Positions 3,483-25,746 of a DNA stretch of 64,000 nucleotides are shown in pieces (the first letter of the stretch is position 1; each line of letters begins with the position of its first letter). Below the pieces are notes generated by a model. It saw nothing but the letters and a program-made list of their open reading frames with translations, made no database searches and had not been told where the DNA came from. The stretch is from contig OZ241351.1 in assembly GCA_965200355.1 (NCBI GenBank), forward strand, positions 1,564,163 to 1,628,162, given 5' to 3'. This DNA is from an uncultured Candidatus Binatia bacterium. Lineage in GTDB: Bacteria > Desulfobacterota > Binatia > Bin18. A program made the translations under genes and the position numbers.

Positions 3483-6131
3483 TTAGAACTCGAAGCCGGC
3501 CCGCAGATAGTAGAACCCGCCGTTGAAGCCGTAGGGCGAGGTTTCCGGGTATTTCAGGCCGGCACCAGCCGCTTGCGGGTTCCTGCGCGGGTACTGATCA
3601 AAGATGTTTTCCGCGCCAAAGGCGACGGTCGCCGCCTGCATAAACGGCAGGTTCAGGAAGGTGTACGAGAGTTCCATATCGACCAGAAAGCGCTCGCCGG
3701 CATTAAAGCCGAAGCTGCCGTCGGTCGGGTAGTCGCGGAAACGGTCGTAGAAATACAACCGGGACAGGAAGCGCCACGGCCCCCAGTTGTGGTCGGCTGT
3801 CAGCGAGAACCGGAACTGCGGCAGGCCCTCTTCGATTTGCCGTACCAGCTTATCACTGATGAACTCTGGGGTGCGGCTGTCCACTTCGGTCTTATTCCAG
3901 TTGCCGACGAGCGTGAACTGCGTAAAGCCAGCCACCGATTGCAGCGGGTAGCTCGCTACCACGTCGATGCCCTGGGTGGTGGTGTCGAAGTCGTTGGTGT
4001 AGAAGCGGAGCACCGATATCTGGTTCGGCCCGACCACGGCGTCGAATTCTGCCCGGCTGATGCCCCGCTTGGCGAGTTCGTCGGCCACATTAAAGCGGCT
4101 GCTGCGAACGATGCGGTCCTGCATCTTGATACGATAATAATCGACGGTGACATCGACATCGGCCACGTTGAAGACAAGGCCGGCCGAATAGTTGACAGAT
4201 TTTTCTGGCGTCAAATCGCTGGCGCCGAAGAAGACCGAAGCCGGATGGTAGGCCGGAAAGGTGGCGTCGTCCACTAACAGGCCGTCTGAAAACGACGTCG
4301 TAATTTTGTTCACATTGGCTTGGCCGGGTGTGGGGGCGCGGAAGCCCGAGCTGACCGCTCCGCGCACGGCCAGCATCTCCACCGCCTGCCAGCGGGCCGA
4401 CACCTTCCCGTTGACGGACTCGCCGATTGGATCGTCAAAGTTCTCATACCGGCCGGCCACGCCCAGGGTCAGGGACCGAATCACTTCGGCCTCCAGGTCC
4501 ATATACAGGGCGTAATTCTTCCGCTCATAGTCACCGACGATATTGGGTCCGAATCCGGTAAACCCGTTCGAGCCAACGCCCAGCCCCTGCGGCCCGAAGC
4601 GGTCGAAGTCGGCATACCAGGAGTTTTCGCCCCCGAGTTTCACCTCATATTCTTCAATGTGATACTCGAAGCCGAACGCCATGTTCAGGTCGGAGTAGAG
4701 GAGGCTGCCGAGGTCCACGGGCCGGGAGATGTCCAGATTGAACGTCTTTTCGGTTTGGGAGACACCGCCCGGTCGGTACTCGGTTGGGATGGCGGTCCGC
4801 ATATCGGCCAACTGCGGGTTGATGGTGTTGAGCATGAAATAGTCCACGCTGTTCTCGCCGAAGTAGGCGCTCACATCGTAATACCAGCCGTTGAGCAGGG
4901 CGGAGGCGCTTTCCAGGGTTCCGGTCAGGCCAAAGGCGATGCTCCAGTCCTGCACGTAGCCGCCGAAGCGGGGAGTAAAACCGCCGGGAAAGCGCTCGAT
5001 GAACGAAAAGCAGTCCGGGCCGTTATCGGCAACTTCTCCAAATTGGGGCACGTTGCCGCGGAGAGGAATATCGCGACAGCCGCCCGACCTGCCGTCGGGC
5101 GACAGGTCAATCACCTTGACGGTGGGGGTGCCGTCTTCCAGCGAGTCGCCCCTGAAGACCCCCCCACGGGTATGAGGATTACGGAAATAGAAGCCACCCT
5201 CGACCTTGCGCTCGGCATAATTGCCAAAGGCGTACAGCCGGCTGTTGATCTCCTCCAAGTCCAAGCCGAGGTTGCCGAAGAATTTGTAGTCGTATTGCAC
5301 CTCTGGCGCGCCCCAAATCTGGGCCGCCGGCCGCCGCACGTGTTCGTTCCCGGCCTCAATCAGCCCGCGCGCATCGCTGCGTTGCACGCTGCGGCTGGTC
5401 TCGTCGGCATTCAGAAACTCGAAGCTGAAGTTGGCAAAGCCGTGCTCGGTCAGGGGCACGCCCAGATTGGCGGCCACTTGCACCTTGTCGCCGTCTCCGT
5501 GGTAGTTCTGGCCATAGCTGGTCTGGACGCTCAGCCCCTCGGTGTCTTCGCGCAGCTTGAAGTTCATCACGCCGGCAATGGCGTCCGAGCCATATTGAGC
5601 CGCGGCCCCGTCGCGCAGCACCTCAACCCGCTCCAGGGCAATGGACGGGATCGTGGAAATGTCGGCCCCCTGCGCTCCCCTGGAGTTCGGAGACCCCAGG
5701 AAATTGATCACCGACCCACGGTGGCGGCGTTTGCCGTTGACCAGCACCAGGGTGGAGTCCGGCGGCAACCCGCGTAGCGTGGCTGGTCGCACGAAGGTGG
5801 ACTCGTCGCTGATGGGTTCCTGGCCGACATTATAAGACGGCACGGTGGCCGACAGCAGGGAGTCCATGTCCCGAATGCCGTAGGTCTGCAAGTCTTCGCC
5901 CTGAATAACATCCACCGGCGCCGGCGAATCCTGGGCCGAACGACCCGCCACACGGGAGCCGACCACGCGTAGGTCGCCCAAGTCTATGATATCTGTTGAT
6001 GCCGCCGCCTCCGTCTCTTGAGCCGCGGCTGGTTCTTGCTGGTTCGTGTCTTGCGCTTCAGCCGCAGAGACACCCATCACGGTCAACACACTCACCAAAA
6101 GGCCGACCTGCCACCACTTCAGCTTTCTCAT
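3483..6131 (-). CDS. TonB-dependent outer-membrane receptor (882 aa), intact
   Basis: N-terminal signal peptide (MRKLKWWQVGLLVSVLTVMGVSAAEA). Plug motifs (DLQTYGIRDMDSLL, TLVLVNGKRR). Long barrel region. C-terminal aromatic ...LRAGFEF. Strong SD GAAGGAGG 8 nt upstream of the ATG at 6131. Confidence 0.9.
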   Translation of the reverse strand: MRKLKWWQVGLLVSVLTVMGVSAAEAQDTNQQEPAAAQETEAAASTDIIDLGDLRVVGSRVAGRSAQDSPAPVDVIQGEDLQTYGIRDMDSLLSATVPSYNVGQEPISDESTFVRPATLRGLPPDSTLVLVNGKRRHRGSVINFLGSPNSRGAQGADISTIPSIALERVEVLRDGAAAQYGSDAIAGVMNFKLREDTEGLSVQTSYGQNYHGDGDKVQVAANLGVPLTEHGFANFSFEFLNADETSRSVQRSDARGLIEAGNEHVRRPAAQIWGAPEVQYDYKFFGNLGLDLEEINSRLYAFGNYAERKVEGGFYFRNPHTRGGVFRGDSLEDGTPTVKVIDLSPDGRSGGCRDIPLRGNVPQFGEVADNGPDCFSFIERFPGGFTPRFGGYVQDWSIAFGLTGTLESASALLNGWYYDVSAYFGENSVDYFMLNTINPQLADMRTAIPTEYRPGGVSQTEKTFNLDISRPVDLGSLLYSDLNMAFGFEYHIEEYEVKLGGENSWYADFDRFGPQGLGVGSNGFTGFGPNIVGDYERKNYALYMDLEAEVIRSLTLGVAGRYENFDDPIGESVNGKVSARWQAVEMLAVRGAVSSGFRAPTPGQANVNKITTSFSDGLLVDDATFPAYHPASVFFGASDLTPEKSVNYSAGLVFNVADVDVTVDYYRIKMQDRIVRSSRFNVADELAKRGISRAEFDAVVGPNQISVLRFYTNDFDTTTQGIDVVASYPLQSVAGFTQFTLVGNWNKTEVDSRTPEFISDKLVRQIEEGLPQFRFSLTADHNWGPWRFLSRLYFYDRFRDYPTDGSFGFNAGERFLVDMELSYTFLNLPFMQAATVAFGAENIFDQYPRRNPQAAGAGLKYPETSPYGFNGGFYYLRAGFEF

Positions 6132-6410: not shown

Positions 6411-7853
6411 ATGCGGACATTGTTCTTGAATCCACCTGCGTATGAAAACTTCGATGGAGGCGCCGGCTCACGCTATCAGGCGACTCGGGAGGTCTGGTCG
6501 TTCTGGTACCCGACCTGGCTGTGCTATCCGGCCGGCATGATTGACAACAGCCGCGTTCTGGACGCCCCGCCCGAAGGCTTGAATCAGGCCCAGACCGTTG
6601 AAATCGCCCAAGCGTACGATTTTGTTGTGCTGCACACCAGTACCCCGTCGGTCAAACTGGATGCGCAGACCGCGGAGTTAATAAAAGAAAAGAATCCGGC
6701 CTGCCACATCGCCTTTGTGGGCGGTCAGGCCACGGCTGAGACGGAGAAGACCTTACAGATTTCTGAGGCCATTGATATCGTCGCGCGAAAAGAGTTTGAC
6801 TACTCCATGAAGGAAGTCGCTGAGGGCTGGGAGTGGAAAGATATCCGCGGCATCAGCTATCGTCAGGACGGACACATCCATCACAATCTTGACCGTCCGA
6901 CGCTGACCAATGAAGAGCTTGACCAATTGCCCTTTGTCACCCAGATTTATGATCGGGATTTGGACTTCCGCAAGTATAACAGCCCGTATTGCCAGTATCC
7001 GTATGTGTCGTTATACACCGGCCGGGGCTGTCCGGCGCGCTGTACGTTTTGTCTGTGGCCGCAGGTGACCACCGGCCATTCCTACCGCACCCGCTCGGTG
7101 GGCAATGTCATTGAGGAAGTGCAGGAAATGCAGCGCCTCTTTCCAGGGATGAAAGAAGTCTTCTTTGATGACGACACGTTTACGGCCGACCCGAAACGCG
7201 CCCGTGAGATCGCCAAAAAAATGGGCCGTCTCGGCCTGTGCTGGTCCACGAATGCCCGCGGCAATGTTGACTACGAGACCCTCAAGGTGCTGAAAGATGG
7301 CGGGCTGCGGCTGTTTGTGGTCGGCTATGAGTCGGGCAACGCTGCCATTCTCAAAAATATCAAAAAAGGCGTGGCCCTCGAAACCTCGCGGCGGTTTACG
7401 CGGGACTGCCACCAGCTTGGTATCCTGATCCACGGCACCTTTATTCTGGGCCTGCCGGGAGAAACCCGTGAGACCATGCAGGAGACCATGCGTTTCGCCC
7501 GGGAGATGAATCCAGAAACCATTCAGGTCTCCTTGGCTTCCCCCTATCCTGGCACCGCCTTCTACGATTTCGCCCTTGACAACGGCTATATCAAGGCCGA
7601 GGACATGGTGGGTGAGTCGGGCTATCAGCAGTGCGTGATTAACTATCCCAACCTGTCCGGGGAAGAAATTTTTGAAACGGTTGAGAAATTTTACCGCTCG
7701 TACTACCTCCGTCCGCGCTATATCTTCAAAGCCGTCAAAAAGATGGCGCGCGACCCGGAGGAGCGCAAACGGATGTGGCAGGAAGGCAAAGATTTTTTCC
7801 GTACCATGCGCAAACGGCGGGAGATGAACGTCTCGTCTTCTCCGGCGGTCTAG
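6411..7853 (+). CDS. hpnJ: Hopanoid-biosynthesis-associated B12-binding radical SAM protein HpnJ (cyclitol-ether/ring-contraction enzyme)
   Basis: 480 aa. N-terminal B12-binding-like domain plus radical SAM core (YTGRGCPARCTFC). The conserved C-terminal region is typical of the HpnJ family. Immediately followed by a GT2/GT21 glycosyltransferase (hpnI) and a YdjC-family gene (hpnK), the canonical hpnIJK context. Confidence 0.75.
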   Translation: MRTLFLNPPAYENFDGGAGSRYQATREVWSFWYPTWLCYPAGMIDNSRVLDAPPEGLNQAQTVEIAQAYDFVVLHTSTPSVKLDAQTAELIKEKNPACHIAFVGGQATAETEKTLQISEAIDIVARKEFDYSMKEVAEGWEWKDIRGISYRQDGHIHHNLDRPTLTNEELDQLPFVTQIYDRDLDFRKYNSPYCQYPYVSLYTGRGCPARCTFCLWPQVTTGHSYRTRSVGNVIEEVQEMQRLFPGMKEVFFDDDTFTADPKRAREIAKKMGRLGLCWSTNARGNVDYETLKVLKDGGLRLFVVGYESGNAAILKNIKKGVALETSRRFTRDCHQLGILIHGTFILGLPGETRETMQETMRFAREMNPETIQVSLASPYPGTAFYDFALDNGYIKAEDMVGESGYQQCVINYPNLSGEEIFETVEKFYRSYYLRPRYIFKAVKKMARDPEERKRMWQEGKDFFRTMRKRREMNVSSSPAV

Positions 7854-7878: not shown

Positions 7879-9108
7879 ATGGTGTCTGACTTCCATGTCC
7901 CACAAGAAGACACCTGCCCCAACGCTGGAGATTGGGAGAGGATGGGGACGTTTATTCTGCTGATCGTCTTCTGGTTCCTGGCCGGCCTGCTGTGCTGTGC
8001 CCTGGCCTATTGCCTCTTTAGTGTCTATGCGGCCTGGCGCTTTTTCCGCTCGCGTCCGACGCCTCCCACTCCCCTGCCCCCGGTCACGATGCTCAAGCCG
8101 CTCAAAGGCGCACCGCCCGACCTGTATGACAGTCTGGCAAGCTTTTGCCAGCTCGATTACCCGACTTTTCAAATCCTGTGCGGCGTCCGTGACCCCGATG
8201 ACCCGGCCGCGGCGGTTGTGACCAAAGTGCAGCACGACTTTCCCCAGTGCGATATTTCCCTGGTTGTTGCGCCGGCGGTGATTGGGACCAATTACAAGGT
8301 CAGCACCCTGCACCACCTGACCGCCCAGATGAAGTATGACTATCTGGTCATTACCGATAGTGATGTCCGGGTTGCCCCCGACTACTTGCGAACAATCATC
8401 CCCCCCTTGACCCAGCCGGAAACCGGACTGGTGACCTGTGTGTATCGCGGCGGTTCCCGCCGGCCCGTACCAGCCCTGCTGGAATCGCTGATGATTAACA
8501 CGACTTTTACCACCCAGGTCGTGGTCGCCAGCCAGGTAGAACAGCCCTCGTATGCCTTTGGCGCAACCATGGCGCTTAAACGCGCCGGCCTCGACGCGAT
8601 TGGGGGGTTTGCCCGGCTGTCTGATTATCTGGCAGACGACTATTATCTTGGATATTTCATTGCCCAGGCTGGGTATCAGATTCGCGTGCTGCCCGCTGTC
8701 GTGGAAACCCGCCCAGACGCGGGTTCGTTGCGCGAGTTGTTTACTCATCAGTTGCGTTGGGCGCGGACGCAACGCAACTGTCGGCCCGGCGGGTATATCG
8801 GGACGGTGGTGACGTTTGGCACGGTCTGGGCCGGCGTCAGCTTGGGCTGTTTTTGGGCGTCGGTCGAGATGACGGTTCTTGCCCTCAGCGTCCTCGGGCT
8901 ACGCCTGCTGAGCGCTGCTCTGATGAACGCGGTTTTTCTCCAATCGAGGCTGCCGCGGTCGGCTCTTCTGCTGACCCCACTCACCGACCTGATCTCTTTT
9001 GTGGTCTGGTGTGCCAGCTTGTGGGGCAACACGGTCCGTTGGCGGGAGTATACCTTCCGGCTCAAAAAAGATGGGCGTATGGTGCGCGTCAGTTCAGTTA
9101 AGCCCTGA
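7879..9108 (+). CDS. hpnI: Hopanoid-associated family-2/21 glycosyltransferase HpnI (N-acetylglucosaminyl transferase onto bacteriohopanetetrol)
   Basis: N-terminal TM helix. GT-A fold motifs (YLVITDSDV DxD-like, QLRWARTQ). Membrane C-terminus. The start may be the ATG at 7942, which has a GGGAGAGG SD. Gene order hpnJ-hpnI-hpnK. Confidence 0.7.
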   Translation: MVSDFHVPQEDTCPNAGDWERMGTFILLIVFWFLAGLLCCALAYCLFSVYAAWRFFRSRPTPPTPLPPVTMLKPLKGAPPDLYDSLASFCQLDYPTFQILCGVRDPDDPAAAVVTKVQHDFPQCDISLVVAPAVIGTNYKVSTLHHLTAQMKYDYLVITDSDVRVAPDYLRTIIPPLTQPETGLVTCVYRGGSRRPVPALLESLMINTTFTTQVVVASQVEQPSYAFGATMALKRAGLDAIGGFARLSDYLADDYYLGYFIAQAGYQIRVLPAVVETRPDAGSLRELFTHQLRWARTQRNCRPGGYIGTVVTFGTVWAGVSLGCFWASVEMTVLALSVLGLRLLSAALMNAVFLQSRLPRSALLLTPLTDLISFVVWCASLWGNTVRWREYTFRLKKDGRMVRVSSVKP

Positions 9109-10023
9109 TGCTTGTGTTCCCGCACGCAGCCCAGGCAGGGCGCAGTACGGCACGAGTCGAATGTCCTGTTGAACGAGCAGCTCGCGCACGGTCGGATTCG
9201 TCAGCGCGGCCAGCTCAACATCTCGGCGATAGGTCGGCGTCCAGCGTTCGACCTCGGGACACGGCCGGCCGGCCGGATGGCAGTACAGTTCCGTGACACC
9301 GGCTTGGAGGCGCGGGAACAGGCCCCGCAGATAGGGGGCATCCAGCGCGCCGCTTTGATGCAGGCCAAACAGATGGTCCGGGTAGGGGATGCCGGCCTGC
9401 CGCAGCTTTTTTGCTGTTATCCGGGCGAGGGGGGTAAAGACCACAGACTCTCCGCGTTTCCTCAATGCCTGGCGTGGGTCAATTGTCAGGCTGGTCGCCA
9501 GGTCTTCGCGGGTCAGACGCATAGCCGGGATAGGGTATTCCTGGGCGAGGGCCAGAAGAACGTCCATAACGACCGGGTGCATATGGATGTTGAGATGGCC
9601 ATCAATATGGGACAGGGGTAAGCCGGTGTTCAGAAAACGTTCAATCTGAGCACGGCACTCGACCCGGATTTCTTGCCGCGCCCGTGGGGAAAAATAATAC
9701 TGCAAGCCGGACCGGATTGGAGCCTGGCTGAAATTCCCCTGACTATCGGTGATCGCGCGTAGGTGCGGTTTGGAGAGCACCGCCCGCCCCTGGACTAAGG
9801 TCAGATGCAGGCCAACCCCGAGGCTTGGTGTTGAGCGGGCGAGGTCAACCGCTGCCTCCCAGGCCGGCGCCGTGACCATGAGGCTGGTATTGGTCAGAAT
9901 GCCCTGCTGATGGGCGTGTAATATGCCGGTATTGACCTGAGTGGACAGGCCGAAGTCGTCTCCGTTGACGATGAGATAGCGGGCGGCGGGGCCGGCCGGC
10001 TCCGCTCTTGCCTTTAGCGGCAC
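9094..10023 (-). CDS. hpnK: YdjC/ChbG-family carbohydrate deacetylase, HpnK-like (deacetylation of GlcNAc-BHT)
   Basis: LIVNGDDFGLS...NTGILHAHQQGILT N-terminus and H/D metal-binding residues are typical of the YdjC (ChbG) family. Convergent with hpnI, overlapping it by 15 nt. Confidence 0.7.
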   Translation of the reverse strand: MPLKARAEPAGPAARYLIVNGDDFGLSTQVNTGILHAHQQGILTNTSLMVTAPAWEAAVDLARSTPSLGVGLHLTLVQGRAVLSKPHLRAITDSQGNFSQAPIRSGLQYYFSPRARQEIRVECRAQIERFLNTGLPLSHIDGHLNIHMHPVVMDVLLALAQEYPIPAMRLTREDLATSLTIDPRQALRKRGESVVFTPLARITAKKLRQAGIPYPDHLFGLHQSGALDAPYLRGLFPRLQAGVTELYCHPAGRPCPEVERWTPTYRRDVELAALTNPTVRELLVQQDIRLVPYCALPGLRAGTQASGLN

Positions 10024-10029
10024 GGAATC

Positions 10030-10150
10030 CCCCTCACCCTAGCCCTCTCCCTCCAGGGGAGAGGGAATGTAGGGGCAAGCCGCTATGTCTACGACTGCGA
10101 CCATGTGTTTCTCCGAGAGGGAATGTAGGGGCAACCCCCTGTGGTTGCCC
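10030..10150. repeat. Two copies of a dispersed REP-like repeat (core AATGTAGGGGCA(A/C)CCCCCTGTGGT(G/T)GCCCGGC) plus a 9-bp-stem hairpin CCCTCTCCC/GGGAGAGGG
   Basis: GAGAGGGAATGTAGGGGCAA occurs at ~10047 and ~10115. The same core recurs at 36666, 36745 and 37333. Confidence 0.8.
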
Positions 10151-10170: not shown

Positions 10171-10917
10171 TCAGCCCTCTTCGAGCGCGTCAAGCCGTTC
10201 GATAGCGGGCAGAATGGCGCGTTCGGCATATTCGAGGTCTTGCGGAAAGTCGATTTCCGTCCAGGGCAGGTCGTCAACCCGCTCAAAGCCAGCAGGGTGC
10301 TGAGCCAGCAACACCGAAAAGGCTTCTTCGTGCTCAATGGTGTCTCGGCCCTGAGCCACACAGTCCTCAAGAATAGAGCGGAGGAGCGGGACGGCCTCTC
10401 GGGCGACCTTGAAAAAACCGACCGACTCGCCCACGAGGTCGTAGTCACCCGCGCCACCCCGGATAATGGTCAGCACCCGCCCGGCCCGGGTGAGCAGCAT
10501 TTGTTCCTCGCCGGTATTCTCGGAACTCGGGTCAAGTAAGAAGCAGCTGGCATGTCTGGAGTGCACTAAGCGTTTCAGCAAACGCACCGGGAACAGCACA
10601 TCGGCGTCCATGACCAGCAGGTCGGCATCAAACTCGTGACGCGCGCTCCAGAGCGACAGAATGGCCCCCTTTTTGTACTGCTCGTTCCTGATATAGCGCA
10701 CGGCCACCGGGCCGCAGCGCGCGCCGATTGCTTTGACAATCAGGGCTCCCCGATAGCCGATCACGATAACCGCTTCTCTGACCCCAGCCGCGCCCAACGC
10801 GGTGAGGGTGCGTTCGAGCAGGGTCTTGCCATTGACCTGAATCAAACATTTGGGCCGCTGGTCGGTGGCGGCCTGAAGGCGTTTGCCAACGCCGGCCGCA
10901 AGGATAATGGCCTTCAT
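10171..10917 (-). CDS. LicC/MobA-like nucleotidyltransferase (candidate cytidylyltransferase for a phospho(no)-alcohol such as 2-aminoethylphosphonate or phosphocholine)
   Basis: MKAIILAAGVGKRL...KCL signature of sugar/phosphoalcohol NTP-transferases. 248 aa. Last gene of the minus-strand operon; 4-nt overlap with the aminotransferase. Confidence 0.65.
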   Translation of the reverse strand: MKAIILAAGVGKRLQAATDQRPKCLIQVNGKTLLERTLTALGAAGVREAVIVIGYRGALIVKAIGARCGPVAVRYIRNEQYKKGAILSLWSARHEFDADLLVMDADVLFPVRLLKRLVHSRHASCFLLDPSSENTGEEQMLLTRAGRVLTIIRGGAGDYDLVGESVGFFKVAREAVPLLRSILEDCVAQGRDTIEHEEAFSVLLAQHPAGFERVDDLPWTEIDFPQDLEYAERAILPAIERLDALEEG

Positions 10918-12002
10918 CGCCTCCCCCCTGTCAACACTGCTTTCAGGGCCTCAAGAAAACGCTGAAAATCGTCCAGGGTCAGATGGCCCATATTGGCCAC
11001 GCGGAAGATATCGGTGCGGAGTTTGCCCTGCCCCTCGTAAATGACAAAGCCTCGTTGTTTGAGGCCGGCGTGTAAATCGGGATAGGAAACGCCCTGGGGT
11101 AAGACGAGAGAGGTCAGGGAGTTCGACCGCAATGCTGGCGGAAGGAGAAAGGCGAGGCCGAGTTGTGCAAAGCCGTTGCGCAGGAATTGCGCGGCCAGAC
11201 GGTAGCGTTCGACCCGTCCCGCTGGTGTTTCCGCCAGGAGTTCGTCAAGGGCAGCGTCGAGTGCATACCAGGCCGGGATGGCCGGAGTAAAAGGGATGCT
11301 GCGTCGTTCCTGGGCCTCCCAGTGCAGGGGCAGGTGGAGATATAACGAACGACGGGGAGCGTCCTGCATGGCTGCCATGACTTCGTTCCGAACCAACACA
11401 AAGGCTACACCCGGCTGGCCTTGGATACATTTGTTTGCCGTACAGGCGCACAGGTCCACGCTGTCACGCCCAACATCGAGGTCTTCGCCGCCCAGCGCAC
11501 TCACTGCGTCCAGCAGAAACAACCGGCCCTGCCGGCGCACGATACGGCCAATTTCCGTTACCGGGTTGAGCAGGCCGGTTGTGGTCTCATGCTGGACCAG
11601 GGCCACGGCCGTAATAGCGGGGTCAGCGCTCAAGGCAGAGGCAATCTGCTCCGGGTTGGGCGCTTGGGTCCAGGCATAGGTCAGTTCTACGGTCGGGATA
11701 CGGTGGGCTTCGGCCATCTGGCGCATCCGGTCGCCATAGACGCCGTTGTTAATGACGAGGAGCTTTCCGCCCGCGGGCAAGGCTGAGGCAATCATGGCCT
11801 CAACCGCCAGGGTGCCCGAGCCGCTGACCACCACCCCGGTATAGCCCTCCGGGGCGAACGCCTGGAGGAGCTTGGCGCGCACCGCGGCCAGCAGGTCGGC
11901 AAATTCTGCTTCGCGGTGGCAGAGGTCTCCCCGCAGCAGGGCCTGCCGGACACGTGGAGAAACATTGACCGGGCCGGGGTTCAGAAGAATGTATTGCTGC
12001 AT
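10914..12002 (-). CDS. phnW: Class-V aminotransferase, 2-aminoethylphosphonate:pyruvate aminotransferase (PhnW)-like
   Basis: Start taken at MQQYILLNPGPVNVS (ATG at 12002), not the longer ORF start that overlaps the upstream gene. Motifs LLNPGP, ANKCIQGQPGVAFV and FRVANMG parallel PhnW/AGT-family enzymes. Confidence 0.6.
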   Translation of the reverse strand: MQQYILLNPGPVNVSPRVRQALLRGDLCHREAEFADLLAAVRAKLLQAFAPEGYTGVVVSGSGTLAVEAMIASALPAGGKLLVINNGVYGDRMRQMAEAHRIPTVELTYAWTQAPNPEQIASALSADPAITAVALVQHETTTGLLNPVTEIGRIVRRQGRLFLLDAVSALGGEDLDVGRDSVDLCACTANKCIQGQPGVAFVLVRNEVMAAMQDAPRRSLYLHLPLHWEAQERRSIPFTPAIPAWYALDAALDELLAETPAGRVERYRLAAQFLRNGFAQLGLAFLLPPALRSNSLTSLVLPQGVSYPDLHAGLKQRGFVIYEGQGKLRTDIFRVANMGHLTLDDFQRFLEALKAVLTGGRR

Positions 12003-12006
12003 CACC

Positions 12007-12606
12007 TCAGTGTCCTGTGGTCCTCTGCCGGCTTGCGATGGCCTGCATAAAGCGCCTGACGATGTGCTGTGGCGCGTGCGTAATCCGACCGATATGCCGC
12101 TCCTCCCGGTCTGGCGCAATTTTAATCAGCAGAAAGGACGGTCCCTTTTTTTCGGACAGGTCTGGTGCCAGCATCTCCTGCGCCGCGGCGCGTAATTGGT
12201 CGGCATCCTCCGCGTGGCGCACATCAACATAGCCGCTCGCCCGCGCCACTGCATCGAGCGCTACGCGGCTGGAAATCGTCGGCTGGTTGCCTGTCGAGCC
12301 GTAGACTTCGTTATCAAAAACCATATGGACCAGATTGCGGGGCTGCTGCGCGCCAATCAGGGCGAGTGCGCCCATATTCATCAGGACATTGCCATCACCG
12401 TCAAAGACGACCACGCGCCGCTCGGGTTTGCTCAGGGCCACCCCAAGTGCAATGGACGCAGCCAGGCCCATTGAGCCGATCATGTAAAAATTGCCGAGCC
12501 GGTCCTCAAGATTGAAGGACTCCCGCGCAATAAACCCATTTGCATGGACTACCAGGGCGTCTTGCAGGACAGGGACCACCACCCCCAGGGCCTGGGCTAG
12601 GTTCAT
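12007..12606 (-). CDS. Phosphonopyruvate/sulfopyruvate decarboxylase, beta (C-terminal TPP-binding) subunit
   Basis: GNFYMIGSMGLAASIALG...DGDGNVLMNMGAL...NEVYGSTGNQ is the ThDP-binding C-terminal domain of the Ppd/ComE family. ATGA overlap with the alpha subunit. Confidence 0.65.
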   Translation of the reverse strand: MNLAQALGVVVPVLQDALVVHANGFIARESFNLEDRLGNFYMIGSMGLAASIALGVALSKPERRVVVFDGDGNVLMNMGALALIGAQQPRNLVHMVFDNEVYGSTGNQPTISSRVALDAVARASGYVDVRHAEDADQLRAAAQEMLAPDLSEKKGPSFLLIKIAPDREERHIGRITHAPQHIVRRFMQAIASRQRTTGH

Positions 12607-13088
12607 GCGGCCACTCCAGGCGGGAGAATCAGCGCCGCCGGGCGACTGGTCTGCTTCAGGGTCGAGGCCGCCCAGCCAATCGCGTCCTCAAGGGTCTGTT
12701 CTTCAAGCACCCGGTACGGAATTTTCAGGGTGGATAACAAGGCGGGCAGGATGTCGCCCATAATAAGATGCTCCGGCGCATCCTTGCCCTGATAGCCGCG
12801 CCACGTAATCAGCAGCAGACAGGGCAGGGCATAGATCAAACTGAGAGAAGACAGGGCATTCAGGCAGACCCCCAGACCCGAGTTCTGCATAATGACAACG
12901 GGTTGTTTGCCTGCCATATAGGCTCCTGCGGCCAGGCCCACCGCCGCGTCCTCGCGCGTCTCGGCAATATAGCCCCCCCGTTCTTCAAGCGTGGCAATCA
13001 CCCCCTTGACCAAGGAGCACGGCACTCCGGTAAAAAAATCAAAGCCGGCCTGCCTGAGATGGTGCACAAAATGGGGTCCACTGACCAT
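12603..13088 (-). CDS. Phosphonopyruvate/sulfopyruvate decarboxylase, alpha (N-terminal pyrimidine-binding) subunit
   Basis: 161 aa; FFTGVPCSLVKGVI...VVIMQNSGLG is typical of the ComD/Ppd N-domain. The split 161 + 199 aa architecture matches ComDE sizes. Confidence 0.65.
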   Translation of the reverse strand: MVSGPHFVHHLRQAGFDFFTGVPCSLVKGVIATLEERGGYIAETREDAAVGLAAGAYMAGKQPVVIMQNSGLGVCLNALSSLSLIYALPCLLLITWRGYQGKDAPEHLIMGDILPALLSTLKIPYRVLEEQTLEDAIGWAASTLKQTSRPAALILPPGVAA

Positions 13089-13112: not shown

Positions 13113-15980
13113 CTATTGGCTTGGTTGGGTCGGACTCAATCGGCTCACCTCACGCCCCCTGTCTCCTGTCGAGTCCTGCCCGGGGAGTGCTGGAGCGGCG
13201 AGCCTCGAATCCTGCCGGCTTCCTTCCGTTCGATATAAGAGCAGGGGCAGAATCACAATAGAGGCGAGCAGGACGCTCCCGACTGCCAGGGTCAGCAGGA
13301 GGCCCATGCTGAAAATGCCATAGTACTGAGCGACCATCAGACTCCCAAAGCCGACCATGGTCGTCAGCGAAAACAGCACAACCGCCTGGCCGGTACTGCC
13401 GGCAATCAGGCTGCCGACCGAGCCGACCTGACCGGCCCGAAAACGATGGACGAGATGGATACCATTCTCTACGCCAATGCCGATAATCAGGGGGGCGGCA
13501 ACCATATTGGCCAGATTAAATTGCACATTCCCCAGCCACATCAGGCCCGCGGTCCAGACCATGCCCAGACCGAGTGGCAGGACGGCCAGCAGGGCATCCG
13601 TGACCCGTCGGAGCGCCACAAAGGTGACAACCAGGATGGCGAGGAAGGCATACCCGGCCGCCTCAATATAACCGGCCTGCATCGCCCCAATAGACTCGTA
13701 GCCAATAATCGGGGAGCCGGTCACATCCGGGTCAACCGTGCGCAACTGCCGAATGAACTCCGTTAGTGGCTCGCGCTCCCAGATATTTTCCTTGGGATAG
13801 ATCTGTAAAAGAAACCGTTGGCCGTCGCGGCTGACAAAGCGGCTGCGCAACTGAGACGGGACATCCGCAAAGGTAATCGGCCCAGCCGGAGATAAATTAT
13901 TCTTGAGCAGAGACCATTTGTCCTGAAAGTCGACAAACAGCGCGTCCTGAAAAAGGGCCAGACGCTGCTGAACATTCTGTTCGGGCAGGGTGCGGAGCGC
14001 TTCAAAAACGGCCAGCAGATGATGGCGGGCCTCATGCAGGAGCGTTTCGCTGGTGTCTTCCTGGGTGCGAATTTTCAGACGGAGTTTATCCAGGGTCTGG
14101 GCCAGCGGCTTGACTGCCACCGGCTGGGGGTCCGTGCGGAGCGGAGGGAGCTCGCTCAGCAGCGGGCGCATAGCAGCAAGGATAGGCAGGCGTTCCTGTT
14201 GTCCGTCCGGAATCAGTGAGGCGACGCTCTCCACAGTTTCCACGCTGGACAGGGCGGCAAATGCCAGGGCCTTTTGCCGCGCCGCTTCTGGCGTCGAGGC
14301 GGTCGCCAAGGAGTTCCAGGACGAGCGTTCAGAGTTTTCAATGATGCGTTTTTCCCACTCAACAGACTCGGTGCCGTGCGCCTGGAGGTTCAGCAAATTA
14401 TAGTCAAAGGAGACCCAGGGCAGCGCCAGGAGTCCCGCCGCGGTGGCCAGGCCGGCGATGCCGAAGAGGACCCCGCTCTTCTGTTCGACGTATCGGCCCA
14501 GCCCAGAAAACGCTGTCTGCAAGAGCGTCTGTCGTCCGACGGCAACCCGCCAGGGCCAGAACGCATCCATCCCGACGATCATGGCCGGCAAGAACGTCAG
14601 AATCGCCACAACCGACAACAGAATGCCCCCGCCCGAAATGATGCCGAGTTCCTGCACGCCGCGAAAGTCCGCCAGTATGACCGCAAAAAAGGCGAGCGCG
14701 GTGGTCAGCGCCCCCGCAATAATGCTGGGGACGGTCTGTTCAAACACGATGGTAATGGCTTCGGCCTGGTTTTTGCCCTTGCCCCGCTCTTCCTCATAGC
14801 GGGTCATGAAATGGACGCCGAAGTCGTCGGCCAGGCCGAGCAGCATTGGGGCGATAAAGACGGTAATAATCGTCAGATGACCGACTGAGAGGGTGACAAA
14901 ACCCAGCGTCCAACTCAGACCGATCATGAGCGCTGAAACAATGAAGAGCGGGTGCCGAATTCGCCGGAAAAAGATCAAGTACAGGAGCGCAATACCCGAC
15001 AGGGACACCACGGTTGCCACGGCCGTATCGTGCTGAGCGCTGAGCATTTCATCATTGCCCAGCGCCTTTGTGCCGGTGACGCCAGCCTCCAGACCCGGAA
15101 ACTCCCCTTTCAACTCGGCAATCGCCTGCCGAATAGCGGCCATCGACTCCTGAAGGTCGTTGAAACCCGCGCTGGCGTCTTCTTTTGCCTCGACCATGAG
15201 GAAGAGGTATTGACGGTTCTCGGCAATGAGGAAGCCGTCATCATCGAGCTGGGCGGTCCCACCAAAAAACTCGGCCCAGGGAGAGCGGTAGCGGTAGTCT
15301 TGTCCGTGCAGCGCGCGTGCAATCTCCTGTAATAATGCGGTGAGGAAGGACAACTGAGAGTCGGAGAACTCACCCGAGTCCTCATCCAGCGGGGCTCCCA
15401 GCCCGAGGAAGTCGTCAACCAGATGCGACACAACGGCCCGACTGACTTGGGTGTTAATCGCCTCGAACAGCGTATTCAGACCGGGGTTTGTCAGCAACTC
15501 GTGAATGATCTCTTGCGAGTCTGCCAGACTCCGCTGTAAATCGCGCAGATCCTCAGCCGGCAGATAGAGCAGCTTCTTGCCCTCTAAGGAGGAAGCATCG
15601 ACGCGGTAAAAAATCTCGGCAATATGCTCCTGCTCCCGAGCGAGCCGTTCACCCAGACGGGTCACAAAGGCTTTGCCCTGGGGGATGTCTTGCGGGGCAA
15701 CCACCACCGCCACCTGATCCACCCCGACAAATTCTTCGGAATACTCTTCGTCGAGTTGCAGGTAGCGCTTATCGGTCGAAATCAGATCATTGCGGCCGGT
15801 GACGAGTTCGAGGTGGCGGGCGGTGTAGACCGAGGCCGCAACCGAAAGCAGGAGACACAGGGCCAGGGCCGTCTTGGCGTAGGCAACGATTCCCCGAGCG
15901 CAGGCTCGCAGGGCGCGTTTTTCCAGGGCAACGAGGCGGTGTTTCAAAGAAGGGCTGACCTGCACGGATACGGTCTCCAC
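13113..15980 (-). CDS. hpnN: RND/MMPL-family hopanoid transporter HpnN-like (955 aa)
   Basis: 12-TM RND topology with two large periplasmic loops. The size and MMPL-type motifs match HpnN. Sits in an operon with MlaC- and MlaA-like genes and next to hpnIJK. Confidence 0.75.
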   Translation of the reverse strand: METVSVQVSPSLKHRLVALEKRALRACARGIVAYAKTALALCLLLSVAASVYTARHLELVTGRNDLISTDKRYLQLDEEYSEEFVGVDQVAVVVAPQDIPQGKAFVTRLGERLAREQEHIAEIFYRVDASSLEGKKLLYLPAEDLRDLQRSLADSQEIIHELLTNPGLNTLFEAINTQVSRAVVSHLVDDFLGLGAPLDEDSGEFSDSQLSFLTALLQEIARALHGQDYRYRSPWAEFFGGTAQLDDDGFLIAENRQYLFLMVEAKEDASAGFNDLQESMAAIRQAIAELKGEFPGLEAGVTGTKALGNDEMLSAQHDTAVATVVSLSGIALLYLIFFRRIRHPLFIVSALMIGLSWTLGFVTLSVGHLTIITVFIAPMLLGLADDFGVHFMTRYEEERGKGKNQAEAITIVFEQTVPSIIAGALTTALAFFAVILADFRGVQELGIISGGGILLSVVAILTFLPAMIVGMDAFWPWRVAVGRQTLLQTAFSGLGRYVEQKSGVLFGIAGLATAAGLLALPWVSFDYNLLNLQAHGTESVEWEKRIIENSERSSWNSLATASTPEAARQKALAFAALSSVETVESVASLIPDGQQERLPILAAMRPLLSELPPLRTDPQPVAVKPLAQTLDKLRLKIRTQEDTSETLLHEARHHLLAVFEALRTLPEQNVQQRLALFQDALFVDFQDKWSLLKNNLSPAGPITFADVPSQLRSRFVSRDGQRFLLQIYPKENIWEREPLTEFIRQLRTVDPDVTGSPIIGYESIGAMQAGYIEAAGYAFLAILVVTFVALRRVTDALLAVLPLGLGMVWTAGLMWLGNVQFNLANMVAAPLIIGIGVENGIHLVHRFRAGQVGSVGSLIAGSTGQAVVLFSLTTMVGFGSLMVAQYYGIFSMGLLLTLAVGSVLLASIVILPLLLYRTEGSRQDSRLAAPALPGQDSTGDRGREVSRLSPTQPSQ

Positions 15981-16038: not shown

Positions 16039-16647
16039 TTATCCGGCCTCGTCGGTCTTGGCGTTTGCAATGATCTGCTGCATCCGCTTCACCAACTCTT
16101 CGTAGGACTGTTTGGACATGAGCGATTGCACTTGTCTGCGCAGGTTGCTGGCCATACTGACCCCGTCGAGCCGAACGTCCCAGATTTTCCATACGCCCTC
16201 CGACTGATTGAGCCGAAAACCGATGGTCACCCGCCCCTCATCTGGATTCACGACCGAGACCTCGGTCAGGGCCTCGTTGCCTTGCTGCTGCATGTCGCCG
16301 TATTCGAACTGGGTGTCCGCCAGAAATTCCGACGCTCTGGGGTAGGCCAGTTCACGCAGCAAGCGTGTCAAAAGGCCGATGAAATCAGCCTCCTTCTCTT
16401 GGCCGAGGGTGTCCCAGTGGGGTCCCATCAGCCAGCGCGACAGTTGCGTAATGGCCAGGTTTTTTTCGATCTCTTCATTGGTGCACTGCGGGGGAGCCGA
16501 GGGCAAACCAAAGTCTTGACCACACGACTGCATAGTCGAGAGCAGCCGCTCGGTCACCTCCGCCGGAGAATCTGCCCAGCCGAGCCGGGGAAAAAGGAGA
16601 CCGACCACCAAAAGGAGAATTGTGACCACGATCAAGCTCCTCAACAC
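16039..16647 (-). CDS. MlaC/Ttg2D-family periplasmic lipid-binding protein (HpnM-like)
   Basis: 202 aa with signal peptide. Size and pattern fit toluene-tolerance Ttg2D/MlaC proteins found in hpn clusters. Confidence 0.55.
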   Translation of the reverse strand: MLRSLIVVTILLLVVGLLFPRLGWADSPAEVTERLLSTMQSCGQDFGLPSAPPQCTNEEIEKNLAITQLSRWLMGPHWDTLGQEKEADFIGLLTRLLRELAYPRASEFLADTQFEYGDMQQQGNEALTEVSVVNPDEGRVTIGFRLNQSEGVWKIWDVRLDGVSMASNLRRQVQSLMSKQSYEELVKRMQQIIANAKTDEAG

Positions 16648-16688: not shown

Positions 16689-17459
16689 CTATTCTGCGAT
16701 CTGCCTCTCCCGATTTTGCAGATAGAAGTCTTGCACTGCGCTATACATATCAAGAGAGTAGCGGTCCACACTCTCGAAGAGTTCCAGATTGAGAGAGCGT
16801 TCGTTGACCGCACTGCTGACCAGGGTGCCTGTATCCGTTGCCATGACTTCGACCGTGGATAAAAAATAGATCTTCGGGTCCATCGCTCCGTCAGCCACCC
16901 GGCCAATAGCATCGCGCACCGTGGAAGGGCCGATAAAGGGCAGCACCAGATACGGACCCGAAGCCACGCCATATTTCCCGAGCGTTTGCCCAAAGTCTTC
17001 TTCGCTGACTTCGAGTCCGAACTGCGTTTTGGCCACATCGAAAAAGCCGAACCCACCGACGGTTGTGTTAATCGCAAAGCGCCCGGCTTCCCGCGCCGCC
17101 CCGTCCAGCTTGAGCTGAAAGAGGCTATTCGCAAAGCGCGGCACAACCCCGATATTATGGAAAAAACGGCGCACGCTGAGACGCGCCGGCTCCGGCACCG
17201 CCCCGGCATAGGAACGGGCGACCGGGCGGAGAATATGTTCGTCCATCCAGATGTTGAAAGAGAACATCTTCTCATTAAAGGGTTCAAAAACAGACGGTTT
17301 GTACACCGGGGTGGATCTGTCAAGCATGTCCAGCGAGTCATCCAGCCCCGACTGCATTGCCCCATTCTGAGCCCCGGCCTTTGGCACATGCGGGCCAAGT
17401 CCGAGAACACTGACGAAACACACAACCATCATCACACCGCTCAGTCGTTGTTTTTGCAT
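16689..17459 (-). CDS. MlaA/VacJ-family outer-membrane lipoprotein
   Basis: Signal peptide, then conserved VacJ region (FNEKMFSFNIWMDEHILRPVARSY...GRFAINTTVGGFGFFDVA...LVLPFIGPSTVRD). Confidence 0.8.
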   Translation of the reverse strand: MQKQRLSGVMMVVCFVSVLGLGPHVPKAGAQNGAMQSGLDDSLDMLDRSTPVYKPSVFEPFNEKMFSFNIWMDEHILRPVARSYAGAVPEPARLSVRRFFHNIGVVPRFANSLFQLKLDGAAREAGRFAINTTVGGFGFFDVAKTQFGLEVSEEDFGQTLGKYGVASGPYLVLPFIGPSTVRDAIGRVADGAMDPKIYFLSTVEVMATDTGTLVSSAVNERSLNLELFESVDRYSLDMYSAVQDFYLQNRERQIAE

Positions 17460-17477: not shown

Positions 17478-17900
17478 CTAGGCGTTTCGGGTTGGCAGCA
17501 AAACGGTCGCCGTACCAATGACCCAGCGTTCGCCGTCATCGTTCTCCATCCAGATATCACACTCAGCCGTCCGTCGCTCCGTATCCTTCTGGGTGACAAA
17601 GCCGAGCAGGTGAATCGCGCAGTCGGGCAGGACCGGGCTGCGAAACGTCGTACCGATCCGGGTAATCTGGGCGGCTTGGTTCCACTCGCCGATCAGTCGG
17701 GCCAGCAAGCCCATACTCAGGACCCCAGGCGCGATCATGCCCGGCAGGCCCTCCTGGCGGGCCCCTTCGTCGTCCGTGAAGCGGGGGAAATCCATACCGG
17801 CCGTTTTGGCGTATTTGCGGACAAAATCCTTGGTCAGGAGCAGGTCGATAGGCGGCAACTCGTCGCCCTCTTCGACCTCTTCAAAATAGCGCGTCTTCAT
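17478..17900 (-). CDS. MaoC-like (hot-dog) enoyl-CoA hydratase subunit
   Basis: 140 aa hot-dog fold. ATGA overlap with the upstream MaoC-like partner gene. Confidence 0.65.
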   Translation of the reverse strand: MKTRYFEEVEEGDELPPIDLLLTKDFVRKYAKTAGMDFPRFTDDEGARQEGLPGMIAPGVLSMGLLARLIGEWNQAAQITRIGTTFRSPVLPDCAIHLLGFVTQKDTERRTAECDIWMENDDGERWVIGTATVLLPTRNA

Positions 17901-18340
17901 CGCTGCATAATCCTATGGTCAACAATCGCAACCTGCTGGCCGTCCTGGTTCGTGATCTTATTCCGCAGGACGATAAAATACATGGAGCCGCTGCGCCCGG
18001 TTTTCTCGTAAATATCGTGGATGGTGCTGACCATTTTCAGCCGGTCCCCGGGTCGGACTGGAGCAAAAATTTCAACATCACGTCCACCGTCAAAGCCGAC
18101 CTTGCCGAAACGCGGCATATGCTCGGGCGTCATTTTTTTGGGCCGGAGCCGGGTCACATACGTCGGAGCCGCCACCAGACCGCCATAGGGGCCGTTCGCA
18201 GCCGCTTCTGGGTCGGTGTAGAGCGGGTTGGTCTCTCCCAGCGCCTCGGCAAATTGCAGGATGTCGGCTGTCTCAACCGCTGGAAAGTCGGTTTCGTCAA
18301 ACACCTGGCCTAAAATGGACCGATCAAATTCCAGTGCCAT
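17897..18340 (-). CDS. MaoC-like (hot-dog) dehydratase subunit, partner of 17478..17900 (ChsH1/ChsH2-type split hydratase)
   Basis: 147 aa. Two adjacent small hot-dog proteins are typical of heteromeric MaoC hydratases. Confidence 0.65.
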   Translation of the reverse strand: MALEFDRSILGQVFDETDFPAVETADILQFAEALGETNPLYTDPEAAANGPYGGLVAAPTYVTRLRPKKMTPEHMPRFGKVGFDGGRDVEIFAPVRPGDRLKMVSTIHDIYEKTGRSGSMYFIVLRNKITNQDGQQVAIVDHRIMQR

Positions 18341-18351
18341 GCGTGTCTCCT

Positions 18352-19038
18352 CTACGCGCCCGACCCACCGTTGGGCGCCGGCCGGGCTGGGGTGCGTCGG
18401 ACCCGAAAATCAACCGGACGGTAGCCGCCGGTTCGGAGCGCCTCAACCAATTCTTCTGTATTCGTAATATCTTGCTCAAACGCGGTGGCGCAAATCCCGA
18501 CAAAGCTGACCAGATGGGCATCGCTGCCCCCAAAGGCGTGATAGCCATACGTATCAATCAGCGCGGCCACCCGTTCATTTTCGCCTTTTTTGCTGCCCCC
18601 GTTCAGAGCTTCAACGCCCACAACGCCGGCGAGCGGAGGACGGTTTGCATAGTGTTCAATCAGGCCGATAGTGGGCCGCCCTGGGTGACACGGCATGGCC
18701 ACCCCGCCCATGCGCGCCACTTCGTCAATCAACTCCTGGGCTCGCAGCCGGACGTTGGAGAAGTCGAAGCGTCGCAGCATGGCGTCGTTGACCCCATATA
18801 CCAGCACATGACCATACTCGGTCTCGACTTCAGACGCTTTAAGAATCAGCAGGTCATACTTATCTTCCAGCGCCCGGTAGTCACTCTGGGTGTCGAACTG
18901 ACGGTGTTCGGTCAGCACGATGCCGTCCAGCGGCCGTTCGCCTCGTTTCCGGGCCAGCCATTTGAGATAAGCCTCAACCGGGGCGCGGCTGTCGTCCGAG
19001 GCTTCAGAATGAAGGTGGAGGTCAATTACTCGTGCCAT
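18352..19038 (-). CDS. PHP-domain metal-dependent phosphoesterase
   Basis: MARVIDLHLHSEASDDS N-terminal His-rich PHP motif. 228 aa. Confidence 0.7.
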   Translation of the reverse strand: MARVIDLHLHSEASDDSRAPVEAYLKWLARKRGERPLDGIVLTEHRQFDTQSDYRALEDKYDLLILKASEVETEYGHVLVYGVNDAMLRRFDFSNVRLRAQELIDEVARMGGVAMPCHPGRPTIGLIEHYANRPPLAGVVGVEALNGGSKKGENERVAALIDTYGYHAFGGSDAHLVSFVGICATAFEQDITNTEELVEALRTGGYRPVDFRVRRTPARPAPNGGSGA

Positions 19039-19138
19039 GGGATATCTGCGTCAATGGTCAGCGTCATTTTTCTGGCTGCAAAATACGGCCCTATAGTGCC
19101 AGAAGCCAACGATTTGAGTCAATTGGGTCAGCCGAGTC

Positions 19139-19582: not shown

Positions 19583-19622
19583 AAGCATTTCCCTCGTTGC
19601 TGGCCTCGTTGCTGAACCGCGT

Positions 19623-25515: not shown

Positions 25516-25746
25516 GCCTCTTATATACGCCGAGAAATTGCTTGTCTAATGGGGTAGGGGTGTGGACGGGGGACGGTCAACAGAGAAGGAGAAAATGTCG
25601 GGACGGTCTCAATCGGGATTGCCACCACACAGGCGAAGCGCTAGGGGAGAGGAGCGAGGGCCTGTCCCTGTCACTTTTTGCCGAAGAGTCCGCTGGACCA
25701 GGAATGTTCCGAACACAGAAAAAACCACCCAAGGGAAGGACGGCGA

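Follow-up and report, generated by a model that had tools for sequence, protein, structure and literature searches.

We report that a module of four genes, predicted to make 2-aminoethylphosphonate (AEP) and to activate it as cytidine monophosphate (CMP)-AEP, is embedded, in an uncultured Candidatus Binatia bacterium, in a locus for hopanoid tailoring and export (contig OZ241351.1, assembly GCA_965200355.1). The stretch of this contig that was analysed, called the window throughout, is 64 kb long, and coordinates given without a locus name are positions in it. The placement inside a hopanoid locus, first noticed in a preliminary description made from the letters of the window, is real, and it is conserved in Binatia and, independently, in Brocadiales. 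We give about an even chance to the reading that the module makes AEP, or a close isostere, and activates it with CMP, that the product goes to a membrane lipid connected with the hopanoid and exporter genes, and that the phosphoenolpyruvate (PEP) mutase is unlinked. The enzymes and the logic of the pathway are known; what is new is the conserved embedding in a hopanoid tailoring/export locus across two phyla, the lack of a linked mutase under continued selection, and the association elsewhere with a non-canonical PEP-mutase family.

Placement and conservation of the module

About 50 open reading frames (ORFs) of the window were scanned against Pfam, and profile scores were compared with the equivalog cut-offs of NCBIfam. 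The four ORFs of the module were all found on the minus strand, with the families that had been named for them. They encode the alpha subunit of a split thiamine pyrophosphate (TPP) enzyme of the phosphonopyruvate/sulfopyruvate decarboxylase family (12603-13088, 161 aa, PF02776 TPP_enzyme_N), the beta subunit of this enzyme (12007-12606, 199 aa, PF02775 TPP_enzyme_C), a class-V aminotransferase of the AepZ/PhnW type (10914-12002, 362 aa, Aminotran_5, with the pyridoxal phosphate-lysine motif TANKCIQG) and a LicC/PntC-like nucleotidyltransferase (10171-10917, 248 aa, PF12804 NTP_transf_3, with the motif LAAGVGKRL). The tight coupling described for these genes holds as ATGA overlaps at the alpha/beta and aminotransferase/nucleotidyltransferase junctions, while beta and the aminotransferase gene do not overlap but are 4 nt apart (TGA GGTG ATG). 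The gene of an RND/MMPL protein lies upstream of alpha with a gap of 24 nt, and hpnK lies downstream of the nucleotidyltransferase gene on the same strand, after a spacer of 147 nt. A terminator scan across the transporter-module-hpnK stretch gave no convincing terminator, promoter and terminator signals being at background level. Because of the 4-nt overlaps and gaps, the 24-nt gap to the transporter gene and this result of the terminator scan, the four module genes and the transporter gene form an apparent operon. The 147-nt spacer contains, at 10059-10143, two copies of a 29-nt direct repeat (GAGAGGGAATGTAGGGGCAA...), 90% identical and 56 nt apart, which could represent a short repetitive element or serve in regulation.

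The preliminary description had placed the module between hpnN and hpnK. The second of these stands: hpnK (9094-10023, minus strand), of the bacteriohopanetetrol (BHT)-N-acetylglucosamine deacetylase family, scored 308.3 bits on TIGR03473 (cut-off 232.6). The gene named hpnN (13113-15980, minus strand, 955 aa) encodes an RND (HAE3/MMPL) lipid exporter that is only HpnN-like, since it scored under the cut-offs of both HpnN models of NCBIfam (595.2 bits against 751.85 on TIGR03480 and 341 bits against 1100 on the second); its score for BstA was 266 bits. It is preceded by the genes of an MlaC/HpnM-like periplasmic lipid carrier (16039-16647, minus strand, PF05494; HpnM 45.7 bits, cut-off 160.1) and of an MlaA-like outer-membrane lipoprotein (16689-17459, minus strand, PF04333). 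Convergent with hpnK are hpnI (7879-9108, plus strand; TIGR03472, 373.9 bits, cut-off 310) and hpnJ (6411-7853, plus strand; TIGR03471, 726.7 bits, cut-off 577.6). Comparison with the known hpnI/K/J pathway (BHT glucosamine, cyclitol ether, HpnN exporter) thus shows that the hpnI, hpnJ and hpnK genes flanking the module pass their equivalog cut-offs, whereas the resemblance of the transporter to HpnN and of the MlaC-like protein to HpnM stays below the cut-offs. We found in the literature no description of a hopanoid locus with a decarboxylase/aminotransferase/cytidylyltransferase module, nothing joining hopanoid with phosphonopyruvate decarboxylase (Ppd) or bacteriohopanepolyol with aminoethylphosphonate, and nothing joining Nitrospira with Ppd.

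A scan of species-representative genomes gave 80 loci carrying homologues of the module, in several phyla, the closest being on Candidatus Binatia chromosomes. Mapping of the window proteins onto these loci showed that about 20 Binatia genomes share the full gene order, down to 58% identity of the beta subunit: abhydrolase, thiolase-like, DUF35, PHP_C, MaoC, MaoC, MlaA, MlaC, MMPL, alpha, beta, aminotransferase, nucleotidyltransferase, hpnK. In the same genomes hpnI and hpnJ are convergent on hpnK. The MMPL exporter gene adjoins the module in every complete Binatia locus and also in locus L077, where the decarboxylase, transferase and HpnL-like genes are joined to it and to a MlaC-like gene.

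The ratio of nonsynonymous to synonymous substitution rates (dN/dS), calculated for the window against 11 Binatia genomes, was about 0.05-0.11 for alpha, 0.07-0.24 for beta, 0.06-0.14 for the aminotransferase and 0.06-0.20 for the nucleotidyltransferase. By this measure the constraint on the module equals that on the transporter and exceeds that on hpnK. All four module genes are under purifying selection and the module is in use. Its recurrence in 80 genomes from several phyla, together with this selection, shows that it is no chance run of ORFs.

The same four genes were found in Nitrospirota, Scalindua, Brocadiales, Myxococcota and one Methylomirabilota contig. Where the contig permits, the module of these relatives is directly followed by the gene of a 430-650-aa NTP-transferase-like/cytidine diphosphate (CDP)-alcohol phosphotransferase (PF01066), whose best NCBIfam matches are DIPP, AIP and PIP synthases, and next after it there is usually the gene of an HpnL-like LPG_synthase_TM protein. 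This pair is adjacent to the module in Nitrospirota, Scalindua, Brocadiales, Myxococcota and the Binatia locus L092.

Linkage to hopanoid genes recurs in two Brocadiales loci (L072 and L085), which contain hpnJ, a radical SAM gene, hpnK, hpnI on the opposite strand, a gene for a 291-aa protein and then the module, in the order alpha, beta, aminotransferase, nucleotidyltransferase, followed by the CDP-alcohol transferase. Their hpnJ, hpnK and hpnI products scored 743, 288 and 356 bits, respectively, all over the cut-offs. The module proteins of Brocadiales and Binatia are about 50% identical, no more than those of Brocadiales and Nitrospira, and the gene order differs, so that the Brocadiales linkage did not arise by a recent transfer of a single block. 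The 291-aa protein (L085 8626-9501, L072 8627-9502) is conserved and without a family match; its gene lies directly upstream of the module and diverges from hpnI over a spacer of about 210 bp.

A third arrangement was seen in a basal lineage of Binatia (L052 = L092). This locus starts with the HpnL-like gene, the module-linked CDP-alcohol transferase, hpnJ and hpnI, continues with a second CDP-alcohol transferase (204 aa), hpnK, a small ORF, a PMT_2 glycosyltransferase, a relic of a mutase-like gene and a squalene-cyclase-repeat protein, and ends with the nucleotidyltransferase, the aminotransferase, a glyoxalase, beta, alpha, MMPL, MlaC and MlaA. Head-group transferases are here interleaved among the hopanoid tailoring genes hpnK, hpnI, hpnJ and hpnL. 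Given genome sizes of 3-5 Mb, chance is very unlikely to have put a module of about 3 kb next to an hpn locus in two phyla and to have kept it there through rearrangements, and from this we argue for a functional coupling of the module with the hopanoid locus. What the conserved adjacency argues for is coupling and not the acceptor, for which the hopanoid is only a candidate.

Families of the module enzymes and of the mutase-like neighbour

Both the N- and the C-terminal halves of a TPP enzyme are present in the decarboxylase, and the beta subunit carries the TPP-binding motif GDG-x26-N. The alpha subunit scored 131.2 bits on the Ppd model TIGR03297 and 130.2 bits on the ComD model TIGR03845 (cut-off 147.95), while the beta subunit scored 176.6 bits on the Ppd model and 176.8 bits on the ComE model TIGR03846 (cut-off 221.5). 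The two halves sum to 307.8 bits on the Ppd model, marginally below its cut-off of 312.5 (98.5%), while alpha attains 88% of the ComD cut-off and beta 80% of the ComE cut-off. The best solved homologue of both halves was RhiEF of rhizocticin biosynthesis (PDB 9IZ3/9IZ4), with 127 bits for RhiE against alpha and 113.5 bits for RhiF against beta. RhiEF is a genuine split phosphonopyruvate decarboxylase, heterodimeric and of two subunits like the module enzyme, so that a split Ppd has a precedent. However, RhiEF sits in an antibiotic cluster that contains pepM, whereas the module enzyme is part of a large clade of environmental sequences (3382 homologues of the beta subunit, the top 120 all at least 66% identical), and no canonical pepM was found beside this clade in the 80 loci. 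Comparison with ComDE, the sulfopyruvate decarboxylase of coenzyme M biosynthesis, showed the same split alpha/beta TPP architecture and equal model scores, but the module enzyme is under both the ComD and the ComE cut-offs, its partners handle phosph(on)ates and it has no coenzyme M or sulfolactate context. Several decarboxylase homologues have been automatically named sulfopyruvate decarboxylase by the Joint Genome Institute (JGI).

Nitrospinota loci (L036-L086, e.g. L062 8558-10561) retain only the two decarboxylase subunits of the module, preceded by a pyruvate phosphate dikinase and an NAD epimerase/dehydrogenase and followed by an MsbA-like ABC exporter. Their neighbours also include glyQS, and none of these genes points to a particular substrate. 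The aminotransferase, the nucleotidyltransferase and any mutase-family gene are all absent within 10 kb of the decarboxylase in these loci.

The aminotransferase passed the AepZ/PhnW model TIGR03301 marginally (363.7 bits, cut-off 360.8). It aligned with the PhnW structures 9KK8/1M32 at 208-211 bits, compared with about 95-114 bits for alanine-glyoxylate/serine-pyruvate aminotransferases and 175 bits for a Pyrococcus "hypothetical serine aminotransferase". Judged by these scores, the aminotransferase groups with AEP transaminases, as the preliminary description had proposed, and the grouping with serine-pyruvate enzymes that it had named as speaking against this was not seen.

The LicC-like assignment of the nucleotidyltransferase was likewise borne out by its PF12804 fold and its GxGxR(L) motif. 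Its best solved homologue, by a slim margin and over a full-length alignment, was the AEP cytidylyltransferase Tde-PntC (6PD1, 48.3 bits), with LicC next (45.1 bits). At the positions of Glu104 and Glu196 of the Tde enzyme, which contact the amine of AEP, the nucleotidyltransferase has Asp at 104, as in LicC, and Glu at 196; Ari-PntC is also LicC-like. In the Pnt pathway of Treponema denticola, PntC is fused to an AEP transaminase (AEPT) domain in Tde1415 (PDB 6PD1; PMC6697681). This AEPT domain matched the module aminotransferase at 188 bits, and the fusion is mirrored by the translational coupling of the aminotransferase and nucleotidyltransferase genes of the module. Unlike Tde-PntC, the module nucleotidyltransferase is neither fused to nor near a PEP mutase (Ppm), and its context is one of lipid and not of glycan genes. 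The bifunctional IPCT/DIPPS model was matched by the nucleotidyltransferase (67.6 bits) and by the module-linked transferase of the relatives (95 bits), both far under its cut-off of 580. The logic of two steps, first cytidylyl activation and then CDP-alcohol transfer, is shared, but the proteins are separate here and the upstream genes are predicted to make an amino-phosph(on)ate rather than inositol phosphate.

That the window contains no PEP mutase, as had been stated, was confirmed in three ways over the 64 kb: a six-frame search for EDKx5NS and relaxed variants had no match, PF13714 matched none of the scanned ORFs, and tblastn of PEP-mutase-family domains gave nothing at E < 1. The 80 loci likewise had no EDKx5NS protein at less than 10 kb from the module. 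In seven of them, however, the module is adjoined by a PEP_mutase-family/NTP_transf_3 fusion of 559-572 aa (five Nitrospiraceae, one Myxococcales and the Binatia locus L068), which carries an EDN-type motif (L078 5553-7232, minus strand; also L061, L070, L075, L083, L047 and L068). In L089 an EDN-type mutase-like fusion (8001-9542) is followed by alpha, beta, the aminotransferase, the nucleotidyltransferase, the CDP-alcohol transferase and a methyltransferase, and L090 has a 2-hydroxyacid dehydrogenase, a mutase-like protein, an NTP-transferase/aminotransferase fusion and glycan genes.

The gating-loop motif of the L078 fusion is IEDNVYPKRCSF in place of IEDKRFPKVNSF. This fusion scored 284.5 bits on the PEP mutase model TIGR02320 (cut-off 319.55), 266 bits on phosphonopyruvate hydrolase and 201 bits on methylisocitrate lyase; it shares 51% identity with the canonical Ppm 5UNC, including the Arg and His that hold the phosphoryl group. 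Among the best 120 relatives of the mutase-like domain, 105 have exactly EDNxxPKRCS, 14 have near variants and none has EDKx5NS. In fuller form the motif of this family reads (I/L)EDNxFPKRCS, and its members are often fused to an NTP_transf_3 domain. The Lys-Arg-Cys of the loop recalls the KRCGH of superfamily lyases. Fusion to an NTP-transferase is a hallmark of Ppm, seen in 883 of 905 fused PF13714 proteins (PMC6697681), and the contexts of the EDN-type fusions match those of true Ppm, as in L089 and L090. Published phosphonate surveys retain only perfect EDKx5NS matches, and for this reason the EDNxxPKRCS family has been left out of pepM surveys.

A relic of 67 codons of an EDN-type gene (residues about 2-72) lies beside the intact module in the basal Binatia locus (L052 14085-14302, minus strand = L092 10001-10204). 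A search with it gave the same relic, 89% identical, in one second genome and no other match, and the main Binatia clade has no trace of a mutase-like gene near the module. The relic shows that a linked mutase-like gene was the ancestral state, and that this link disappeared without damage to the remaining genes. The neighbourhood of a Binatia EDN-type fragment (P0125) gave no further information. The best 120 homologues of the Binatia EDN-type domain and the relic search, which are weak tests, gave no intact EDN-type copy on about 29 Binatia chromosomes. An arsenic analogue for the EDN-type protein, suggested by the bisenarsan Ppd homologue that acts on arsonopyruvate, was rejected: the bisenarsan mutase is of the phosphoglycerate-mutase type, with an EPSP-synthase homologue, and does not have the ICL/PEP-mutase fold, unlike the EDN-type protein.

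Proposed pathway and competing explanations

In the pathway that we propose, the split TPP enzyme would decarboxylate phosphonopyruvate to phosphonoacetaldehyde, the AepZ-type aminotransferase would convert this to AEP, and the PntC/LicC-like enzyme would form CMP-AEP. A CDP-alcohol-type phosphotransferase would then transfer the aminoethylphosphonyl group to a hydroxyl of a membrane lipid, which the adjacent HpnN-like RND, MlaC-like and MlaA-like system would carry to the outer membrane. We infer the substrates of these enzymes, and also an unlinked mutase in this genome. If AEP is indeed the product, diacylglycerol or ceramide would account for about half of the likelihood as the lipid acceptor; a hopanoid polyol (BHT-glucosamine or cyclitol ether) is a plausible but somewhat less probable acceptor, and a glycan or lipopolysaccharide (LPS) an improbable one.

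Phosphonolipid clusters have been predicted in Nostoc lichen cyanobionts and in Burkholderia, with pepM, ppd, AEPT, an NTP transferase, a CDP-alcohol phosphatidyltransferase and hpnL (PMC5987646, Fig. 7). The module resembles them in having ppd, the AEP aminotransferase and the NTP transferase in one apparent operon, and its relatives also have the CDP-alcohol transferase and the HpnL-like gene directly downstream. It differs from them by the lack of a nearby pepM, by the split decarboxylase, by the absence of the transferase from the locus and by its position between an HpnN-like exporter and hpnK/I/J; where the relatives have an adjacent mutase-family gene, this has EDNxxPKRCS and not EDKx5NS. 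Since the gene set is the same, the chemistry proposed in the preliminary description is the accepted reading and the gene set is not new. Of the novelty claimed there, the hopanoid context and the missing mutase remain.

Several results weigh against AEP synthesis for a lipid of the hopanoid locus. Most lineages with the module have it without hpn genes, and no phosphorus-containing hopanoid was found in the literature. A PEP-mutase-family gene is absent from the window, and in about 27 Binatia loci none lies within 10 kb of the module; the mutase-like neighbour of the relatives has EDNxxPKRCS instead of EDKx5NS and is under the PEP mutase cut-off, and even there the formation of a C-P bond is unproven. 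The Ppd and ComDE models tie on each decarboxylase subunit (131/130 and 177/177 bits), and just one of the two amine-contacting Glu residues is conserved in the nucleotidyltransferase. An orthologue of the module-linked transferase was not found in the window. PntC enzymes were never assayed with phosphoethanolamine (PMC6697681).

A first alternative is a mutase-free route through phosphate esters, which we judge distinctly unlikely. In it, 3-phosphohydroxypyruvate, an intermediate of the serine pathway that is one atom longer than phosphonopyruvate, would be converted by the decarboxylase to phosphoglycolaldehyde, by the aminotransferase to phosphoethanolamine and by the LicC-like enzyme to CDP-ethanolamine, the donor for a CDP-alcohol transferase, giving a de novo supply of Kennedy-type head groups. 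LicC-family enzymes take phosphoethanolamine weakly (Table 1, PMC6697681). Such a route would account for the loci without a mutase-family gene within 10 kb (the Binatia loci just mentioned, Scalindua, Brocadiales and some Nitrospira), for the strong selection on the module after its mutase-like neighbour had decayed to a relic, and for the equal distance of the decarboxylase from the Ppd and ComDE models, which would fit a third specificity. The aminotransferase, however, passes an AEP-specific model, the neighbour, where present, is a PEP-mutase-family protein and not a serA-type gene, and nothing in the analysis pointed to the ester route in particular. We know of no enzyme of the decarboxylase family that uses phosphohydroxypyruvate.

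The same tie between models, the JGI names and the absence of ppm from the window are points in favour of a sulfonate product, with a ComDE-type enzyme giving sulfoacetaldehyde and then taurine for a taurine-conjugated lipid. This is the least probable of the alternatives, the ComD and ComE scores being well short of their cut-offs and the aminotransferase grouping with AEP transaminases. Neither the scanned ORFs of the window nor the conserved neighbours of the 80 loci include comA/B/C, sulfolactate, phosphosulfolactate or cysteate genes, and a nucleotidyltransferase followed by a CDP-alcohol phosphotransferase requires a phosph(on)ate. The module could also be a remnant used for salvage, which would process environmental AEP or phosphonopyruvate derived from phosphonoalanine, interconvert AEP with phosphonoacetaldehyde and activate scavenged AEP, after loss of the linked mutase and transferase; it would then have no tie to hopanoids and its synteny would be inherited. 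The mutase-like relic, the missing module-linked transferase of the main Binatia clade and the fact that the Binatia synteny is one evolutionary event are consistent with this. We nevertheless consider it very improbable, as the decarboxylase subunits, which are dispensable for salvage, belong to the genes of the locus under the strongest constraint, and as the hpnI/J/K linkage recurs in Brocadiales with another gene order.

A more specific form of the AEP pathway seems unlikely as a whole. In this form the hopanoid head of Binatia and Brocadiales (BHT glucosamine or cyclitol ether) would bear an aminoethylphosphonyl or phosphoethanolamine group, which a CDP-alcohol-type transferase would install from a CMP-activated donor; the product would be exported by the HpnN-like/MlaC/MlaA system, EDNxxPKRCS proteins would be the source of the C-P bond, and the main Binatia clade would be mutase-free. 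Hopanoids are major membrane lipids and geological biomarkers. From the conserved link between hopanoid genes and the AEP module we predict a lipid class not known so far or, failing that, a co-regulated remodelling of the outer membrane, and the carriers of this link (anammox bacteria, Nitrospira and Binatia) matter to the nitrogen and carbon cycles. The EDNxxPKRCS family, large, widespread and present in clusters of the phosphonolipid and glycan types, is a blind spot of phosphonate surveys: should it form C-P bonds, counts of environmental phosphonate producers are too low, and otherwise the product of these "phosphonolipid" clusters is something different.

Other genes of the window

Two candidate transferases were found 32-40 kb from the module. 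They are CDP-alcohol phosphotransferases (PF01066), one of 502 aa with an N-terminal NTP-transferase-like region (44879-46387, minus strand) and one of 411 aa beside ceramide-type genes (51780-53015, plus strand), and they are paralogues with 36% identity. The preliminary description had pointed to these transferases and to a sphingolipid cluster near the module. Both are present, but the transferases are only 22-24% identical to the module-linked transferase of the relatives, as distant paralogues and not orthologues (the 502-aa protein aligns with it over both domains), and the ceramide-type cluster of Spt, epimerase and GNAT genes (56384-59894) lies about 40 kb away without conserved linkage. 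The wider region 51780-59894 contains the 411-aa transferase, a DAGK_cat lipid kinase, a 327-aa protein, a fatty-acid desaturase on the opposite strand, a CerR-like NAD epimerase, a serine palmitoyltransferase (529 bits, under the cut-off of 640) and a bCerS-like GNAT protein.

A second LicC-like nucleotidyltransferase (39662-40534, plus strand, 290 aa) is 30% identical to that of the module and shows similarity to the NTP domain that the relatives have in their mutase-like fusion. It belongs to a group of genes at 37369-46387, with a fused LptF/LptG permease (758 aa), an Elm1 protein, an MsbA-like exporter and the 502-aa transferase, which possibly serves as a second unit for head groups or for the decoration of LPS. 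The Elm1 protein (40526-43084, 852 aa) has a C-terminal Elm1 domain and an N-terminal half without detectable family, and no solved homologue of this fusion protein was found.

At the edge of the window, 9 kb from the module, lies the gene of an HpnL-like flippase-like membrane protein (LPG_synthase_TM, PF03706; 1-801, plus strand), whose N-terminus is beyond the window. This protein is 34% identical to the HpnL-like protein that follows the module in Nitrospirota and 53% identical to that of Binatia L092. Next to it, a second TonB-dependent receptor (801-3237, minus strand) is 54-72% identical to the intact one at 3483-6131; its sequence is distributed over three frames, the frameshifts falling near 1070 and 1850, while in relatives the gene is intact (about 878 aa), and it is either a pseudogene or the result of long-read indel errors.

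On the other side of the module, the block upstream of the MlaA-like gene (17478-21607, minus strand) consists of an abhydrolase, a thiolase-like protein, DUF35/ChsH2-OB, a PHP_C metallohydrolase and two MaoC hydratases, and shares the Binatia synteny. The block, in which the thiolase is SCP-x/Ltp2-like, resembles the ChsH1-ChsH2-Ltp2 set of steroid side-chain cleavage. Scans of the window for tRNAs and Rfam families gave nothing. Two regions of lower GC content (0.56-0.57) are restriction-modification-like, one at 25562-32015 with a ResIII helicase-like protein (893 aa) and a 930-aa N6/N4 DNA methylase, the other at 48171-49856 with a 561-aa methylase.

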